Shown here piece after piece: positions 1-5,764 of a DNA stretch of 5,764 nucleotides. Position 1 is the stretch's first letter. The number at the start of each line of letters is the position of its first letter. The stretch is from an uncultured archaeon (GTDB lineage Archaea; Iainarchaeota; Iainarchaeia; Iainarchaeales; CSSED10-239): the NCBI GenBank assembly GCA_964463155.1, contig CAYXAY010000038.1, positions 1 through 5,764 of the forward strand. Reading direction: 5' to 3'. The notes beneath the pieces were generated by a model. The model was not told the DNA's origin. It worked only from the letters and a program-made list of their open reading frames with translations, and searched no databases. Both the position numbers and the translations under genes were made by a program.

Positions 1-60
1 AGGGGCTGGACTTAAGATCCAGTGCTTAGTGCTTCGCAGGTTCGAATCCTGCCCCCAGCA
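1..60 (+). tRNA. tRNA-Leu (anticodon UAA), 3' ~60 nt only; the 5' part lies beyond the left edge
   Basis: Anticodon stem 6-10 ctgga / 18-22 tccag with 7-nt loop cttaaga (anticodon TAA at 13-15). Long variable region 23-35, as in class II tRNAs. T arm gcagg-ttcgaat-cctgc at 36-52. Acceptor 3' strand 53-59 and discriminator A60. No encoded CCA. Confidence 0.85.
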
Positions 61-181
61 TAACTGGTTTCGCTCGGTTAATGTGCAGTAGTTTTCATGG
101 TTATCCGCGACAGACCAAAAGAAAACCACACGGAAAATTAATTACATAAAAACCATAGAAGATTAATATTAAAAAATTTAA

Positions 182-547
182 ATGAGAAAGATTATGAAAA
201 AAGATCTAAAGAATTTACAAACTCAAAAGTTGATTGAAAACTTGTATAAGTTGTCAAAGGATAAGAAAAAGGACATCTATTCAGTGGTTGCAAGGATTTT
301 AGAATCTTCAACAAGAAAACAACCATCCAAAAACCTTTTTAACCTTCAAAAGATGACTTGTGTTTTTGATGAAGACATAGTTGTAATTCCAGGAAAGCTT
401 CTAGGCACAGGCAACTTGGAAAAGAAAATAACAATCTATTGCTTGAACGCATCAGAATCAGCAAAAAAGAAATTTAAGGGAATAAAGACATTAAAGGATT
501 TCTGCAAGGATAATGTTGATTACAAAAAAGTAAAATTGATTAAGTAA
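182..547 (+). CDS. rpl18e: 50S ribosomal protein eL18 (L18e)
   Basis: 121-aa ORF of typical L18e length, with the characteristic VVIPGKLLGTG core and a basic N-terminal half. It sits between a tRNA-Leu and rpl13, as in the conserved archaeal cluster. The start is uncertain (ATG 182 or ATG 194) and no GTGA motif lies upstream. Confidence 0.82.
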   Translation: MRKIMKKDLKNLQTQKLIENLYKLSKDKKKDIYSVVARILESSTRKQPSKNLFNLQKMTCVFDEDIVVIPGKLLGTGNLEKKITIYCLNASESAKKKFKGIKTLKDFCKDNVDYKKVKLIK

Positions 548-567
548 AATTTATTTTGGTGAAAAAT

Positions 568-990
568 ATGATAGTATTAAATGCAAAAAACAAAATACTT
601 GGAAGACTTTGCACAGAGATTTCTTCTAGGCTTTTAAGAGGCTCTGAAAAGATTGTGGTAGTAAATGCAAACGATGCATTTATCACAGGATCAAGAGAAG
701 ACATCATGGCAAGGTTCAAGGAAAGAACACACAGAAAAGGAAAAGGTAACCAATTAAAAAACGCAAAATATCCAAGATACCCAGACAAGATGATAAAGTT
801 TGCAGTTAGAGGAATGCTTCCAAGAAATGCAAGAGGCTTTATGACATTAAAGAATCTAAAAGTATTTACTGATATGCCAGAGACATATGTAAAAGACTTG
901 CCAAAGGAAGTTGCAGAAAGACCAAAATTAAAAGGAATGACATTAAACGAGATTTGCGTATTACTTGGCGCAAAAATAAAAAAAAAGTGA
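568..990 (+). CDS. rpl13: 50S ribosomal protein uL13
   Basis: From ATG 568 the product begins MIVLNAKNKILGRL, the canonical uL13 N-terminus. It also has VVVNANDAFITG and RGMLPRN...LKNLKVF motifs. GGTGA at 558-562 lies 5 nt upstream of ATG 568. The ORF track's TTG at 556 is probably too early. Confidence 0.93.
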   Translation: MIVLNAKNKILGRLCTEISSRLLRGSEKIVVVNANDAFITGSREDIMARFKERTHRKGKGNQLKNAKYPRYPDKMIKFAVRGMLPRNARGFMTLKNLKVFTDMPETYVKDLPKEVAERPKLKGMTLNEICVLLGAKIKKK

Positions 991-999
991 GTGAAAAGA

Positions 1000-1401
1000 A
1001 TGGTAAAGAATTATTTTGTTAAATCTTCTAGAAAGACATCTGTTGCAAGATGTATGGCTAAAGCAGGAACTGGGAAGGTCCATATTAACGGAACTCCACT
1101 TGAAGCAATGTATTCAGGTTACAAGCAAGGACTAATAAAGGAACCATTGATACTTCTTAATGAAGAATCAGCAAAGCTTGATTTTTTTGTTAATGTTTCT
1201 GGCGGAGGAGTAATGTCCCAAGTTCAGGTAACAAGATCATGTATTGCAAAAGCAGTGCTGGCAGCAAACAACAGAGAAAAAGTCAGAGAAAAGATTATGA
1301 AATACGACAGACATCTTCTTGTTGACGATGTTAGACAAAAAGAACCGAAAAAACAACTTGGTAAAGGAGCAAGAAAGAAAAAACAACATTCTAAAAGGTG
1401 A
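1000..1401 (+). CDS. rps9: 30S ribosomal protein uS9
   Basis: Motifs [41 protein letters not shown] and the typical C-terminal ...QHSKR. GTGA at 991-994 lies 5 nt upstream of ATG 1000. GTG 991 is an alternative start. Confidence 0.92.
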
Positions 1402-1409
1402 ATTTTTTT

Positions 1410-1604
1410 ATGATATGTCCAGTGAGATGTTTTACCTGTGGTCAGGTGGTAGCTGACAAGTATGATGAGTATGTTAAACTTACAACTCAGGAGAAGAAAA
1501 CCCCTGAAGAGGCATTAAACATACTTGGCATAACCAAATATTGTTGTAGAAGAATGCTATTAACACATGTTGAGGTTATTGATGATATTATGAAGTATAA
1601 TTAA
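1410..1604 (+). CDS. rpoN: DNA-directed RNA polymerase subunit N (Rpo10, Rpb10 homologue)
   Basis: From ATG 1410 the product begins [14 protein letters not shown] and later has [12 protein letters not shown]. Together these give the CxxC plus CC zinc-site signature of Rpb10/RpoN. The length of about 64 aa fits. GGTGA at 1397-1401 lies 8 nt upstream. Confidence 0.93.
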
Positions 1605-1617
1605 AGTGTGAAAAATA

Positions 1618-2496
1618 ATGGATAGTAAACCAAAAAAAGAAACTCAAATAGAAAAAAAACAAACACAAGGAAAAACCCTTGTAAACATTGACTTATTTCT
1701 AAAGAACGGAATACATATTGGAACAAAATATAAAAATGGCCCAATGAGAAAATTCGTTTTCAAGTCAAGAAACGACAAGATAAATGTCATGGACGTTCAA
1801 GTGATTGACAAGAGAATAAAAATCGCAATCGATTTCATTTCCAAGTATGAGCCAACAGACATAGTTTTCATATCAAGAAAGAAATATGCTCTTCCAGGAG
1901 TTAAGATTCTTGAGCAGACATTTGGCTATAAGTCAAAGCTAAACAGATTTATACCTGGAACATTTACTAACCCAGAATCAGAACACTTCATGGAACCAAA
2001 ATTAGTATTTATCGCAGACCCTAATGTTGACAGGCAAGCAATTGTTGAAAGCACAAAAGCAAATATCCCAATTGTTGCTCTTTGTACAACTTCAAGTAAT
2101 ACAAGAAACGTTGACTTGATAATTCCTTACAACAACAAAGGAAGAAAATCCGTTGCATTGTTCTTTTGGTTATTGATAAGGGAATTACAATTAAAGAATG
2201 GAGTAATAAAATCAGATAAGGATTTTGCATATGCAATTGAGGATTTGATTTACAATTCAGAATTTGGAGAAAAAGAAATTGATGAAGAACAGCCACTTCC
2301 AGGAAAAAGAACAAGAAAAACTCCAGTAAGAACAACAAGAAGACCAATCGGCGCTGAAAGAAAACCATTAACAGGCGACGCTCCAAAAAGATCATATATA
2401 AGAAGACCACCAATAACACCAGCTCCAGTAGCAACAGAAACTAAGTCAGAAGGGTCAGTAAAAACAGAAACAACAGACAACGGTTCAAAAGAATAG
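1618..2496 (+). CDS. rps2: 30S ribosomal protein uS2 with a short Lys-rich N-terminal extension and a ~80-aa basic Pro/Thr-rich C-terminal extension
   Basis: Core at aa ~21-212 has LFLKNGIHIGTK, FISRKKY, FIPGTFTNP, VFIADPNVDRQAIVES and IPIVALCTTSSN, as in archaeal/eukaryotic uS2. GTGA at 1608-1611 lies 6 nt upstream of the ATG. The tail (aa 213-292) is low complexity. Confidence 0.9.
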   Translation: MDSKPKKETQIEKKQTQGKTLVNIDLFLKNGIHIGTKYKNGPMRKFVFKSRNDKINVMDVQVIDKRIKIAIDFISKYEPTDIVFISRKKYALPGVKILEQTFGYKSKLNRFIPGTFTNPESEHFMEPKLVFIADPNVDRQAIVESTKANIPIVALCTTSSNTRNVDLIIPYNNKGRKSVALFFWLLIRELQLKNGVIKSDKDFAYAIEDLIYNSEFGEKEIDEEQPLPGKRTRKTPVRTTRRPIGAERKPLTGDAPKRSYIRRPPITPAPVATETKSEGSVKTETTDNGSKE

Positions 2497-2547
2497 CTTT
2501 ATTTAATTATCGCTAATATATATATAATAGATTAATGTGAAAAGGTT

Positions 2548-3291
2548 ATGCAGAATAGTAAAATACTAAGTCTTTTGTTAGACCTTGGGCTTACAGAGTA
2601 TGAAGCAAGAACTTTAACTACATTATTTAATTTTGTAGAAGCAGATGCTCCTCATATTAGTAGAAATGCAGAAATTCCAAAGACAAGAATCTATGATGTT
2701 TTAGATAAACTAAAAGAAAAAGGACTAGTTCTAGAGGTTTACGGAAGACCTAAGAAATACAAAGTAATTGAGCCAAGCGAGATATTCAATTATCTTCTTT
2801 ACAGCAAGCAAAAAGAGCTTTCAGTTCTTGACAAGCAAGTAAAAGACATTTTAAGTAAAGAGACATGGACTGGACAAGTAACAGGCGCTCAAGAAAAGAT
2901 ACTACAAGTTAAAAATATTAAAGATTACAATAAACTATTATCTCAGGAATTTGATGATGCAAAAAAAGAGATTACTGGTTTTACACATTTTGATGAAAGA
3001 ATCGATGCTTTTAAAAGCATTTATGAAAAGCCTGAATTAAATGTTAAACTTATTTCAAAGCCAATAGCAAAAAACCATTCTGTTCCAAAGCACTTTTCAA
3101 TACAGGAAAAAGACCATTCAATGGATGCTTTTGTTATTGACAAGAATAAGGTTGTTATGTCTCTAAATGATTTGACAACACCAAAAGAAACATATCACTT
3201 GACAATTCTAAAGAATAATCCATGCCTTGCAAAAGCGTTGCTCTCACACTTTGATGATTATTGGAAAAAGAGCAATAACAACAATCACTAA
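2548..3291 (+). CDS. TrmB-family winged helix-turn-helix transcriptional regulator, short form
   Basis: The N-terminus LGLTEYEARTLTTLFNFVEADAPHISRNAEIPKTRIYDVLDKLKEKGLVLEVYGRPKKYKVIEP matches the TrmB wHTH pattern (LGLSEYEA...VYDVL..L..KGLV....GRPK.Y..V.P). A predicted coiled region follows. At 247 aa it is too short for the full sugar-binding C-terminal domain. GTGA at 2537-2540 lies 7 nt upstream. Confidence 0.8.
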   Translation: MQNSKILSLLLDLGLTEYEARTLTTLFNFVEADAPHISRNAEIPKTRIYDVLDKLKEKGLVLEVYGRPKKYKVIEPSEIFNYLLYSKQKELSVLDKQVKDILSKETWTGQVTGAQEKILQVKNIKDYNKLLSQEFDDAKKEITGFTHFDERIDAFKSIYEKPELNVKLISKPIAKNHSVPKHFSIQEKDHSMDAFVIDKNKVVMSLNDLTTPKETYHLTILKNNPCLAKALLSHFDDYWKKSNNNNH

Positions 3292-3292
3292 T

Positions 3293-3307
3293 TTTTAATT
3301 AAATTTT
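3293..3307 (+). terminator. Oligo-T tracts just after the TrmB-family gene stop, possible archaeal terminator
   Basis: T5 at 3293-3297 and T4 at 3304-3307, within 16 nt of the TAA at 3289-3291. Archaeal termination typically uses oligo-T runs. AT-rich background makes this weak. Confidence 0.35.
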
Positions 3308-3310
3308 CGG

Positions 3311-3347
3311 CAGTATACTGCACATTTATGTGCTGATAAGGGGCCCC
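3311..3347. repeat. Three back-to-back palindromes: CAGTATACTG (3311-3320), GCACAT-tt-ATGTGC (3320-3333), GGGGCCCC (3340-3347)
   Basis: Read directly. The first and third are perfect self-complements. The second has 6-bp arms around a 2-nt centre. Function unknown. Confidence 0.6.
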
Positions 3348-3353
3348 CAATAA

Positions 3354-3614
3354 ACATTAAATTGCGAAGCGATTTGGTTCATTTTAAAAGAACGACACAA
3401 ATGTTCTTATCGTCGTTTAACAGAATTGTTAAACGACATAAATATCTTACGAATGCTTGGCATCCAGAAGTTACCGCACTTTACAACCTTACAAAAATTT
3501 GTAAGTAAAATTAGTAAGGACATTTTACAAAAACTAGTCGGGATAATAACATCACAGTACACATACCATTTAGAAAACCGCCAAGTTATCAGTCAGTATC
3601 TGATAACAGAATAA
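3354..3614 (+). pseudogene. Transposase N-terminal fragment (HTH / DUF772-like region), no ATG
   Basis: The frame is open from 3354 and reads ...AIWFILKERHKCSYRRLTELLNDINILRMLGIQKLPHFTTLQKFVSKISKDILQKLV. This matches the N-terminal pattern of IS5-type transposases (..SYR.L.ELL......LG....P..STL.KF..R...). No ATG lies upstream, only the TTG at 3426. The tail after about 3545 looks like out-of-frame read-through. Confidence 0.6.
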
Positions 3615-3826
3615 AAGCAATGAAACGATTTAGAACTAAATCTTATAACAAAAGATCAATAGTTGAATCAGTAATCTCTGCAATCAAGCGAACAACTGGT
3701 GAATATGTAACTGCGACTAAACTGGATAACCCGCAAAAGCAGGTTATCCTAAAAGTGTTAACTTATAATTTAGAACCTCTGAGTAAAAACAAAAAAGCCA
3801 TTTCTTTTACAATATTAATATTGTAA
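3548..3826 (+). pseudogene. Transposase C-terminal fragment (region around the catalytic Glu of the DDE triad)
   Basis: A different frame is open from 3548 and reads ITVHIPFRKPP...KRFRTKSYNKRSIVESVISAIKRTTGEYVTATKLDNPQKQVILKVLTYNLE. It fits the Y..R..VE..FS.IKR.FG signature at the C-terminus of IS4/IS5-type DDE transposases. The segment carrying the first two Asp residues is absent. Confidence 0.62.
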
Positions 3827-3862
3827 AAGGATTTCTACAGAACCATTATACACAAGCAAAGA

Positions 3863-3870
3863 TTTAAATA
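3863..3870 (+). promoter_or_regulatory. Archaeal TATA box (TTTAAATA) with purine-rich BRE-like gcaaaga just upstream
   Basis: Exact match to the archaeal TATA consensus TTTAWATA. With TATA centred near -26, the predicted TSS is about 3890-3896. That leaves a ~20-nt leader containing GGTGAT before ATG 3915. Confidence 0.45.
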
Positions 3871-3904
3871 TTTTTTCGGTATTTATTTATATGTTTGTTT
3901 TTAT

Positions 3905-3910
3905 GGTGAT
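3905..3910 (+). promoter_or_regulatory. Shine-Dalgarno-like GGTGAT, 4 nt upstream of ATG 3915
   Basis: Complementary to the conserved archaeal 16S 3' end (..GAUCACCUCC). The same (G)GTGA motif precedes the starts at 568, 1000, 1410, 1618 and 2548. Confidence 0.55.
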
Positions 3911-3914
3911 ATCT

Positions 3915-5414
3915 ATGTTTAGATCTAAGAAAGGACAGGCGGCAATGGAAGTTTTAATTATTTTTGGCGTTATGATTATTGGCGTTGTTGTGTTTGGAGC
4001 ATTTTACCTGCAAAATGTTGGAACAAAGATTTCAAGTCCTGCTGGCACTCCAGGAGACAAAGATCCAACAACCCTGATTCAAACAAAATACGATAAGACA
4101 ATAATCAATGACGGGATAATAAACCAGACAAGCATGACAGGTGGCAGTTCATTTGTTAATAAAATAACTGGCGAAATAACAGGCTGTAATAATAATGGAA
4201 TTTGTCAAACACACATAGGCGAAAATTCACTTAATTGTTCTGATTGTTGTAGTGCTTCAGGATGTAGTAATGGTCAATGTAATATTTGTTGTCCAGATAA
4301 TTGTGTTCTAATAGACTCCTGTGAAAATGGAGAATTAGATGTAGACGAAGAAGATATTGATTGTGGGGGGGTTTGTCCTAACAGCTGTATAATCCCCCCA
4401 AATTGTAATGAAAATGAAATCTGTGAACCCCATCTAGGTGAGACTGCCTTAAATTGCCCAACAGATTGTGGTATAGGTTATCTAACTTGTGGAAATGGAA
4501 CATGTGATGCAGGAGAGACTCATTCGACTTGCCCACAAGATTGTAGATGTGGAGATGAATTTTGTGGATACGGTGAAAACACAACCAATTGTTCAACAGA
4601 TTGTTATTGTGGTAACAATAGATGTGATACAGGGGAAAATCGCCTGAATTGTTCGAAAGATTGTTATGAATATTTATTTTTTAAAATTATATCTCCGATT
4701 TCAGATAACGACAATTATTACTTTAGTTTTGTGGGAGAAAACACCCCTGTATTTTTTTATGCTAAACTATTAAGAAACAAAAATGGATCAATAATTGAAT
4801 TAACAAAGGACGAAAAAAAAGAAATTAATGAGGCAGGCTTTACTGTAAATTGGTTTGTAGATAATGGTTTAGAGTTAGCAACAAATAATTATTTTTGGGG
4901 GGAAATTCCAAAAACAACAACCCTATTAGCACAAAGTAATTTAAATATAAGTTATCAAGATGAAATTTCAATAAAGACAAGCGAATCTGAAGAAAATAAA
5001 ATATTAAGTGGAGATCCTAACTCAGAAATAATTTCGTTTATTAAAAAAGAAGAAGATCCAATAACGACAGAAACTATTGCTAAATTTAATAATATAGTAG
5101 AGCTTGGACACAATATTGATTACTTAATTGGTTGTAGTTGGTATTTTGTTAATTTAGACAATTATAAAATACAGCACATATACAATGATTATCGGTGTGG
5201 CTTATCTGAAAGAAACCAATTGTCTTACTATGGTTTTGAAGATGGCCAATCCTATTTAGTATATGTTCAAGCAAAAGCCATGTCAAAAGACGTGGTATAT
5301 TGCCCTCCGCCATCCGTATATGACCAGGCAGTACCAAACTGCTGGGTTACAGTCCCAGCACATCAAATAATAGATACTAGAATGCAAATGATTACTATTG
5401 AATCCAACAAATAG
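3915..5414 (+). CDS. Secreted or surface protein: class III (type IV pilin-like) signal peptide, seven Cys-rich modules, unknown C-terminal domain
   Basis: The ORF is open from ATG 3891. ATG 3915 is preferred because of the SD motif and TATA spacing, and because it gives a short basic leader, MFRSKKG, before QAAMEVLIIFGVMIIGVVVFGAFYL. That is a G/Q cleavage-site pattern with Glu at +5 and a ~25-aa hydrophobic helix. Residues 99-259 (numbered from 3891) hold 30 Cys. Confidence 0.85.
   Translation: MFRSKKGQAAMEVLIIFGVMIIGVVVFGAFYLQNVGTKISSPAGTPGDKDPTTLIQTKYDKTIINDGIINQTSMTGGSSFVNKITGEITGCNNNGICQTHIGENSLNCSDCCSASGCSNGQCNICCPDNCVLIDSCENGELDVDEEDIDCGGVCPNSCIIPPNCNENEICEPHLGETALNCPTDCGIGYLTCGNGTCDAGETHSTCPQDCRCGDEFCGYGENTTNCSTDCYCGNNRCDTGENRLNCSKDCYEYLFFKIISPISDNDNYYFSFVGENTPVFFYAKLLRNKNGSIIELTKDEKKEINEAGFTVNWFVDNGLELATNNYFWGEIPKTTTLLAQSNLNISYQDEISIKTSESEENKILSGDPNSEIISFIKKEEDPITTETIAKFNNIVELGHNIDYLIGCSWYFVNLDNYKIQHIYNDYRCGLSERNQLSYYGFEDGQSYLVYVQAKAMSKDVVYCPPPSVYDQAVPNCWVTVPAHQIIDTRMQMITIESNK
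4185..4667 (+). repeat. In-frame array of Cys-rich modules; the last three (4488-4547, 4548-4607, 4608-4667) are exact 60-nt / 20-aa tandem units
   Basis: Modules are CNNNGICQTHIGENSLNCSDCC, CSNGQCNICCPDNC, CENGELDVDEEDIDCGGVCPNSC, CNENEICEPHLGETALNCPTDC, CGNGTCDAGETHSTCPQDCR, CGDEFCGYGENTTNCSTDCY and CGNNRCDTGENRLNCSKDCY. Common spacing is C-x4/5-C-x8/10-C-x3-C with a central GE. Confidence 0.85.
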
Positions 5415-5431
5415 TGTTCCATAAATAGCGC

Positions 5432-5450
5432 TTTCTATTTTCTTTTTATT
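5432..5450 (+). terminator. Oligo-T terminator candidate for the surface-protein gene
   Basis: ctttctattttctttttatt has T3, T4 (5438-5441) and T5 (5443-5447) runs, 18-36 nt after the TAG at 5412-5414. Confidence 0.45.
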
Positions 5451-5483
5451 CTAAAACAAAAATATTGTTGTATTTACTATAGA

Positions 5484-5558
5484 AAGTCGTGAGCCAGAGC
5501 ACCGCACATTTATGTAGCGGGTGAATGGCGTCTCGCACGACTTGTTTTTAATCTTTTT
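5484..5558 (+). ncRNA. Candidate small structured RNA: ~60-nt imperfect hairpin followed by two T5 tracts. Strand and expression unproven
   Basis: The 8-bp outer stem is aagtcgtg 5484-5491 / cacgactt 5536-5543. Inner helices are gcca 5493-5496 / tggc 5526-5529, cacc 5500-5503 / ggtg 5520-5523, gc 5504-5505 / gc 5517-5518 and aca 5506-5508 / tgt 5513-5515. T5 tracts lie at 5545-5549 and 5554-5558. The segment is clearly more GC-rich than its flanks. Confidence 0.25.
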
Positions 5559-5572
5559 CTAATAAGTATATG

Positions 5573-5595
5573 CCTATTGGTCGGAGACCAATAGG
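5573..5595. repeat. Perfect 10-bp inverted repeat with 3-nt spacer: CCTATTGGTC-gga-GACCAATAGG
   Basis: Read directly; the arms are exact reverse complements. It could be a hairpin or a dimeric protein-binding site. Confidence 0.6.
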
Positions 5596-5764
5596 AGTGT
5601 ATCATATATGAATGACTTATATAGCTATTAGAATAAAAACATTTCGGATGCACGCCGAAACTCGTTTCACTTTGTTTTTGTTTCAAAATATAGATATAAT
5701 ACATTCCGTAGTGTTTTTATAAGTGAAATAGTAAAAGATATTTTTAATGTTGTATCTCAAAAAT

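Follow-up and report, generated by a model that had tools for sequence, protein, structure and literature searches.

A conserved class III (type IV pilin-like) signal predicted on a large cysteine-rich protein encoded at a variable archaeal locus

We analysed a 5,764-bp stretch of archaeal DNA (the whole of contig CAYXAY010000038.1, positions 1 to 5,764; hereafter the window) and an open reading frame (ORF) near its 3' end, whose product had been proposed to be a large Cys-rich surface protein with a type IV pilin-like signal. Comparison with relatives indicates that this protein begins with a true class III (type IV pilin-like) signal, conserved and of the EppA-substrate kind with Q+1 and E+5. 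The target is probably a surface protein processed as a class III substrate and presenting a variable head. The parts of the predicted protein, in amino acids (aa) of the ORF as mechanically called, are as follows.

3891..5414, + strand: target ORF, 507 aa as mechanically called, stop included in the coordinates
3915..3935, + strand: predicted class III leader MFRSKKG, with K-2 and G-1 before Q+1; cleavage expected after Gly15 (ORF numbering)
3936..4013, + strand: mature N-terminal hydrophobic alpha-helix QAAMEVLIIFGVMIIGVVVFGAFYL, aa 16-41, with E at +5 (predicted from PF04021, AlphaFold, hydropathy and conservation)
4014..4184, + strand: Thr/Gly/Ile-rich linker, aa 42-98, delimited by composition and partly conserved with related locus L001 and database protein P0034 (alignment A1)
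4185..4664, + strand: Cys-rich array, aa 99-258, 30 Cys, delimited by cysteine pattern and homologues
4665..5411, + strand: C-terminal domain, aa 259-507, 249 aa, 4 Cys, the presumed exposed 'head', with no assignable family

A class III signal is conserved among otherwise unrelated proteins

The signal in the window, MFRSKKG|QAAME, combines K-2 and G-1 with Q+1 and E+5 and runs into a hydrophobic stretch of 25 residues. Residues 17-41 form the only strongly hydrophobic segment of the protein (Kyte-Doolittle about 2.7; best 19-residue windows 2.6-2.76, at aa 17-22), and aa 21-41 are free of charged residues. Single-sequence AlphaFold placed an N-terminal helix at ORF aa 13-43 with a predicted local distance difference test score (pLDDT) of about 85. 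The Pfam profile PF04021 (Class_IIIsignal) aligned at all 27 of its positions, to aa 13-39 (17.0 bits, E = 0.0057), a match that we regard as suggestive when taken alone, without the relatives.

Searched with the N-terminal pattern, genomes and metagenomes yielded 18 loci. The relatives come from activated-sludge, digester or lake samples, and metagenome-assembled genomes that carry them include DAOOUC01, DAOMZT01, JBBABY01 and JAKQHQ01. Among 11 non-identical related proteins, Q+1, E+5, L+7, G+11, G+16 and F+20 are invariant (alignment A2), position -2 is K or R, and position -1 is G or A (11/11 for both). The original prediction had named homologues lacking the G/Q hydrophobic segment as evidence against it; all 11 relatives keep the motif. 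Between the window and its relatives, 6-12 of 30 signal codons differ synonymously, those of the invariant G, Q and E included. Because synonymous changes fall at invariant codons, the signal segment appears to be translated and under protein-level constraint. The homologous N-termini score 24.4 (L005a, above the PF04021 cut-off of 23.7), 22.9, 22.5, 22.2 and 22.1 bits. As a class III predictor we used a FlaFind-like rule, our own reconstruction of the signal pattern, which flagged 16 of 251 long reading frames over all loci and picked out the target family; the flagged frames from outside the family were one probable false positive (L006) and three ORFs of a separate class III operon (L008). 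We consider this comparative conservation decisive for the predicted signal, beyond the sub-threshold Pfam match. The class III features first noticed in the window (basic leader, G-1, Q+1, E+5 and hydrophobic helix) thus appear real by the PF04021 alignment, the 11 relatives and the synonymous codon changes together.

EppA substrates, the Epd pilins of Methanococcus maripaludis, have a KGQ[VLI] processing site and E+5, and Q+1 is required by EppA (PMC4371748, PMC2910488). By this likeness, the leader would be cleaved at G|Q by an EppA/PibD-type peptidase. The conserved positions also provide a searchable family signature, [KR][GA]|Q-x-x-[LIM]-E-x-L-[IV]-[IV]-[FL]-G-x-x-x-I-G-x-x-x-F, which marks a large surface-protein family left 'hypothetical' by annotation pipelines. 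A 52-column N-terminal profile gave one match among 5.8e9 proteins, being too short for significance in a search of that size. Identity as an archaeosortase/PIP-CTERM-associated class III protein (TIGR04205) was rejected, at 12 bits against a cut-off of 65.

We also considered an uncleaved signal-anchor, as in a type II membrane protein, or an ordinary Sec signal peptide, either of which would make the likeness to K-G-Q-x-x-x-E incidental. The below-cut-off PF04021 score would fit such an N-terminus, as would the search of the PDB with the family's N-terminal profile, which found only weak matches to generic transmembrane helices (E = 0.96 and 5.2). However, K/R-2, G/A-1, Q+1 and E+5 are invariant or nearly so in 11 otherwise unrelated proteins, through synonymous change, and a plain anchor would not conserve a charged Glu. 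No A-x-A site follows the hydrophobic stretch of 25 residues, which is atypical for signal peptidase I substrates, and neighbours of ~900 aa at these loci have classical signal peptides of a clearly different kind. We therefore consider a signal-anchor or Sec signal improbable.

Large proteins are the rule behind the signal

About 12 of the 15 complete family members are 455-1047 aa long. A large protein behind the family's signal is therefore the rule in this lineage, and the premise of the original prediction that such a fusion is unusual falls away. The outer domains of the large members vary: DUF285 repeats are found in P0034, L004b and L006a, CHB_HEX_C_1/Fn3_assoc in L001a, L003a, L006d, L014 and L019, and GLUG in L007b and L014, while those of L005a and L007a belong to no recognisable family.

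The family also has pilin-sized members of 105 aa (L004/L009, 6757-7074) and 92 aa (L011, 1093-1371), each encoded directly upstream of a large member. They score 22.5 and 22.9 bits, respectively, against Class_IIIsignal, with an additional weak Flp1_like match, and are candidates for the major subunits of a presumed filament. The position that corresponds to these pilin-sized genes is occupied in the window by an insertion sequence (IS) remnant.

Proteins of ~900-990 aa with classical Sec signal peptides adjoin the class III clusters in three loci (L006 6948-9908, L007 5480-8134 and L004 7098-9935). In L006 and L007 their C-termini consist of a transmembrane helix plus RRR/RKR, and Pfam shows no significant domain in either, only a weak, sub-threshold Cep192_D3 match in the L007 protein; both may be S-layer-like. 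The L004 protein carries CHB_HEX_C_1/Fn3_assoc repeats and a weak Peptidase_M6 match.

The gene occupies a variable slot after TrmB

2548..3291, + strand: TrmB-family regulator gene, left border of the variable slot (Pfam TrmB, E = 1.4e-18)

The TrmB gene closes an L18e-L13-S9-RpoN-S2-TrmB block whose gene order is kept in L001, L002, L003 and L004. In L001/L002, L003 and L004, between one and three genes encoding class III-signal proteins come directly after the block; next in L003 and L004 are dCMP deaminase, L7Ae, S28e and IF2. The proteins flanking the slot in the window are 78-90% identical to those of the nearest relative, L001 (TrmB, 90% aa identity), whereas the target and its L001 counterpart share 40% identity over the first ~185 aa (signal, linker and first Cys module) and are unalignable beyond. 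The accessory or variable status proposed for the gene is borne out by this disparity, and the suggested comparison of the locus across genomes found synteny in L001-L004 with differing cargo domains at the same position.

On these alignments, the target gene is shown to behave as one allele, or cassette, of a hypervariable slot after TrmB, at which exchange affects the outer domains and spares the signal, linker and first Cys module. The outer domains are likewise shown to turn over far faster than the adjacent housekeeping genes, as judged from the aligned proteins, which makes the proteins that bear them candidates for host or substrate recognition. We tentatively raise a more specific idea, namely that the position downstream of TrmB is a cargo-swapping locus where a pilin-type delivery module (class III signal, helix, linker and first Cys knot) is recombined with unrelated heads, the essentially orphan 249-aa domain in this case, giving polymorphic adhesins, tethered to a filament or the membrane, that choose partner cells. 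If true, the slot would be an archaeal counterpart of pilin/adhesin variation loci, in small-genome and probably host-dependent archaea.

An IS5-family remnant and intact putative expression signals precede the gene

3360..3826, + strand: IS5-family transposase remnant in two frame pieces, 3360-3611 and 3620-3826, with NF033579 matches
3863..3870, + strand: TATA-box-like TTTAAATA, a candidate archaeal promoter and the sole such motif in the intergenic region
3905..3909, + strand: GGTGA, a putative Shine-Dalgarno-like motif 5 nt before ATG 3915
5484..5550, + strand: stem-loop, then TTGTTTTT (fold energy -25 kcal/mol, z = -2.5, for the stem-loop at 5484-5543)

The gene had been described as lying just downstream of an IS remnant, and NF033579 resolves the latter into two IS5-family transposase pieces. 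They match positions 51-99 (E = 9e-6) and 242-287 (E = 2e-10) of 289; the catalytic core is deleted, and what remains of the complete DDE transposase of an IS5 element is these two segments only. The Pfam matches to DUF772 and DDE_Tnp_1 are weak. Terminal inverted repeats were sought around the remnant and none was convincing. The remnant is not present at the slot in relatives.

The spacer between TrmB and the class III gene measures 624 bp in the window and about 95 bp in L001, the window spacer being longer because of the IS remnant. Just 3' of the target stop, the stretch 5434-5480 resembles the L001 spacer between TrmB and its class III gene (L001 3318-3365), minus the CTTTAA of its TATA box. 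This spacer-like stretch points to rearrangement at the slot: either the IS remnant and target gene were inserted together between TrmB and the old spacer, or 5434-5480 would be the promoter of a lost downstream paralogue.

Translation probably starts at ATG 3915, giving a 499-aa protein that begins with MFRSKKG, in agreement with the start originally assumed. From 3891 the N-terminus would read MFVFMVIS-MFRSKKG-QAAMEVLIIFGVMIIGVVVFGAFYL. ATG 3915 is favoured because the sole TTTAAATA box lies at 3863-3870, GGTGA precedes 3915, and the leaders of relatives are 5-11 aa long; the predicted mature protein is identical whichever start applies. The TTTAAATA box also precedes the genes at the orthologous position in L001, L003 and L004, and is a candidate promoter of the target gene. 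The transcript would start near 3893, as expected from archaeal promoter layout given a box at 3863-3870. Downstream, the target transcript may end at the stem-loop and TTGTTTTT (5484-5550). A 15-nt direct repeat, AC(T/C)GCACATTTATGT, occurs at 3317-3331, ~25 nt past the TrmB stop, and at 5501-5515, ~87 nt past the target stop and inside the 5484-5543 stem-loop. The copies are identical at 14 of 15 positions and each is the core of a small hairpin; they could be terminators or the ends of an inserted segment.

A cassette acquired or rearranged recently beside the IS remnant might be decaying or silent. The IS5 remnant lies immediately upstream, the full-length protein has no close homologue in protein searches, and what looks like the ancestral TrmB-to-gene spacer is now found 3' of the target, all of which would fit a gene that is no longer expressed. 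Against this, the frame of 507 codons is intact and its 34 Cys all fit the register of the module pattern, the TATA-like box and Shine-Dalgarno-like motif stand intact between the IS remnant and the start, and a terminator-like structure follows. We consider a silent gene very improbable.

A flexible linker and a Cys-rich array follow the helix

The target has 34 Cys, of which 30 lie in aa 99-258 and 4 in aa 415-484. Its single hydrophobic segment, high Cys content and 8 N-x-S/T sequons, with no C-terminal membrane anchor found by hydropathy analysis, support secretion.

The linker consists of 18% Thr, 14% Gly, 14% Ile and 5% Pro, and its pLDDT in the single-sequence model is below 50. Described beforehand as Pro/Thr/Gly-rich, it is indeed rich in Thr and Gly and poor in Pro. 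The count of 30 Cys in the array was exact, whereas the seven disulfide-type modules originally counted reduce to five canonical C-x4-5-C-x8-10-C-x3-C modules (aa 99-119, 172-193, 200-218, 220-238 and 240-258) plus an irregular 10-Cys stretch (aa 120-166).

All 56 non-self homologues found with the full-length protein match only aa ~85-260. They come from Myxococcota, Candidate Phyla Radiation (CPR) bacteria, Anaerolineae and archaea, and mostly carry Sec or lipoprotein signals. The proteins of Myxococcota and CPR bacteria have C-G-N-G-x-C-[DE]-x-G-E-x4-C-P-x-D-C modules in common with the target, at 33-54% identity over aa ~85-260. The alignment of the array (A3) has 27 invariant columns, mostly Cys with some Asp/Glu. 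Three array homologues have pilin-type N-termini: P0034, which belongs to the target's own family, P0007 and P0009. P0007 is encoded within an operon of five consecutive class III-signal genes, one of them for a 1246-aa VWA-domain protein (L008 2170-9023; guanine-cytosine (GC) content 46%), an archaeal-type operon that exemplifies the occurrence of these Cys modules within a pilin gene cluster elsewhere. P0009 has a weak, sub-threshold bacterial N_methyl pilin motif.

Sequence and profile searches found no counterpart of the Cys module in Pfam, NCBIfam or PDB beyond chance level, and the C-x4-5-C-x8-10-C-x3-C module is, by its homologues, a widespread and unannotated one. Membership of DUF4215/PF13948 was rejected, the window protein giving no PF13948 hit at E <= 1; PF13948 is present elsewhere in some of the array homologues. 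AlphaFold with a 20-sequence alignment modelled the array at pLDDT 65 overall and 70-81 on the canonical modules (predicted template modelling score 0.32), and Foldseek found no match for the model in the PDB. The model suggests modules arranged as beads on a string, and the array may serve as a disulfide-stabilised spacer or stalk.

The C-terminal domain is essentially an orphan

The ~250-aa C-terminal domain with 4 Cys had been left without a family, and the profile searches proposed for it, like the profile and fold searches for the array, gave no family or PDB assignment. For the domain this holds in Pfam, NCBIfam and PDB by sequence and profile. An exhaustive HMMER scan of 1.84e9 representative proteins returned the protein itself plus three spurious hits; these were rejected as FG-GAP-like and leucine-rich repeat proteins matching short pieces of the query many times. 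A word-index search with the C-terminal 249 aa returned nothing and missed even the identical database protein. Because that protein was found by the HMMER scan, word-index negatives cannot be read as absence. The single-sequence AlphaFold model of the whole protein (pLDDT 35.7) is usable only for the N-terminal helix.

Just one family member shows a relation, a weak, collinear similarity spanning the whole target domain and the C-terminal domain of L005a (JAKQHQ010000009.1). Their Smith-Waterman score is 96.5, against 49 +/- 9.3 in 500 shuffles, none of which reaches it (z = 5.1, 0/500). The motifs YLFxxxxSPI, FxFxxxxTPxxxYAK, CxWYxxNL, LxYVQ and a terminal DTRMxxITI are common to both domains. 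These values are suggestive of distant homology between the two, short of proof. Relatives have adhesin-type domains at this position, and by that analogy we assume that the C-terminal domain binds a ligand.

Proposed surface display, with or without a filament

We propose the following course. The precursor would enter the membrane via its N-terminal signal, and a prepilin peptidase of the EppA/PibD class would remove the 7-residue MFRSKKG at the G|Q motif seen in the sequence. The mature helix (Q16 to about L41) may then stay held in the membrane or join the core of a thin Epd/Tad-like filament built from the small family members. The flexible Thr/Gly linker and the Cys stalk, presumably rigid through its disulfide bonds, lie between helix and head in the predicted architecture and would hold the 249-aa lineage-specific head off the cell, where its most likely role is ligand binding on another cell or surface.

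Within the class III-processed reading, we favour association with a filament only slightly over membrane tethering. In favour of a filament are the pilin-sized paralogues with the same helix, the strict conservation of E+5 and the G, G and F that follow, and the Cys-module proteins in pilin operons elsewhere. The filament machinery that corresponds to EppA substrates, termed 'system 1', whose main pilin has no globular domain, has been reported in DPANN archaea (bioRxiv 10.64898/2026.04.22.720090).

If the protein were instead displayed from a membrane tether with no filament, its signal would be processed, the helix would remain in the cytoplasmic membrane, and the linker and Cys stalk would carry the head through the envelope, in the way put forward for the class III sugar-binding proteins of the Sulfolobus bindosome. 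A flexible linker directly after the helix, as in class III substrate-binding proteins (PMC3387779, PMC2910488), is consistent with such a tether, as are the failure to find assembly genes within 10 kb at any related locus and the very large size of most family members (up to 1047 aa), which is awkward for packing along a filament. However, some large members have neighbouring genes for pilin-sized proteins that share the helix, and the strict conservation of E+5, G+11, G+16 and F+20 exceeds the needs of a plain anchor. In addition, helix-only pilins of the Epd/Tad type exist, so that a helix with a tether is compatible with a filament too. We regard a tether without a filament as possible, though rather doubtful.

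Several observations weigh against a class III-processed, filament-associated display protein. The PF04021 score of the window protein, 17.0 bits, is below the gathering cut-off of 23.7, and its TIGR04205 match is negligible. As the original prediction had stated for the window, assembly genes are absent: neither there nor within 10 kb of the 18 related loci did we find a prepilin peptidase, a PilB/ArlI-type ATPase or a TadC/ArlJ-type platform gene, the ATPase being sought with a Walker A pattern (PilB/VirB11-type) over the ORFs of all loci. The helix is followed by a low-complexity linker in place of a pilin-type globular domain, and the architecture therefore does not imply incorporation into a filament; Pfam, NCBIfam and PDB searches found no pilin globular domain, and the AlphaFold model is too poor to exclude a small fold. 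The head has no recognisable fold or family, so that the term 'adhesin' rests only on analogy; the pilin-anchored or pilus-tip adhesin originally suggested is still a hypothesis. A distance of 37 bp separates the TATA-like box from the IS remnant upstream of it, and the DPANN affiliation of the archaeon is one that we infer. In archaea, pilin genes are known to lie apart from the assembly machinery (PMC4371748). Since archaeal pilin genes can be unlinked in this way, the absent assembly genes weaken the filament case and do not exclude it.

Comparison with known systems

The closest likeness in the signal itself is to the Epd pilins of M. maripaludis (PF04021, formerly DUF361; QxSxExxxL), which share the basic leader, KGQ, Q+1, E+5 and long hydrophobic helix. 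The main Epd pilin is reported to have no globular domain, and the 92-105-aa family members may be built likewise. Epd pilins are small, whereas the target helix carries about 460 residues predicted to be extracellular, and genes for EppA, EpdL and EpdJ/K were not found near the target.

Bacterial modular pilins are widespread (PMC8179133). In Streptococcus sanguinis PilB (a pilin plus a vWA module; Raynaud et al. 2021, PMC8179133), as in the target, bulky modules of non-pilin type stand behind a class III signal and helix; here these modules are the Cys array (aa 99-258) and the 249-aa domain. The likeness extends to presumed ligand-binding modules and very diverse architectures, and in P0009 Cys modules stand behind a weak N_methyl motif. 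The bacterial proteins differ in having a full pilin module of helix and beta-sheet with a short loop, whereas the target has a ~57-aa low-complexity linker and no detectable globular module. They also carry an N-methyl-Phe signal, in contrast to the archaeal type of the target (basic -2, Gln +1).

The class III substrate-binding proteins of Sulfolobus (GlcS and AraS of the bindosome) resemble the target in being large, with a prepilin-type signal, a helix-linker-functional domain layout and genes away from the machinery (PMC3387779, PMC2910488). They differ in that Q+1/E+5 of the target points to EppA-like, not PibD-like, specificity. A bindosome substrate-binding protein was rejected, there being no substrate-binding family in Pfam/NCBIfam and no ABC transporter neighbour. 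The Cys-rich repeat proteins of Myxococcota and CPR bacteria, some with PF13948/DUF4215, have the same Cys modules as the target array; unlike the target they mostly carry Sec or lipoprotein signals, and the target lacks a PF13948 match.

Class III signals on non-pilin proteins (substrate-binding, proteases, redox) have been known since FlaFind (PMC2910488, PMC3387779), and archaeal type IV filament loci have large proteins resembling adhesins associated with them (PMC4858521). We regard a class III signal on a large protein as expected and not new in principle, and the variable slot as the more useful lead. New here are the signature of a family not annotated before, a Cys module without assignment, a head that is essentially an orphan, and a conserved slot that exchanges heads between close relatives. 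Pilins and adhesins of uncultured small-genome archaea are mostly unannotated 'dark matter', although attachment is central to their biology (PMC6393860, PMC9563170). It would be reasonable to determine the structures of both the Cys module and the C-terminal domain.

Neighbouring genes and lineage

1-60, + strand: 3' two-thirds of a tRNA, cut by the contig start (Rfam RF00005, 30.5 bits, model positions 21-71)

The GC content is 28-38% across the window. On the + strand the gene order is tRNA (5'-truncated), L18e, L13, S9, RpoN/Rpo10, S2, the TrmB-family regulator, two transposase-like frames and the target ORF. This gene set is an archaeal ribosomal-protein cluster, and from the low GC and gene content a DPANN-type affiliation of the archaeon is likely. 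ARAGORN reported no tRNA in the window, the partial one at 1-60 included. Ribosomal protein S2 (1618-2496) has a C-terminal extension of ~65 residues, rich in Lys/Pro/Thr/Arg, past the Pfam S2 domain.

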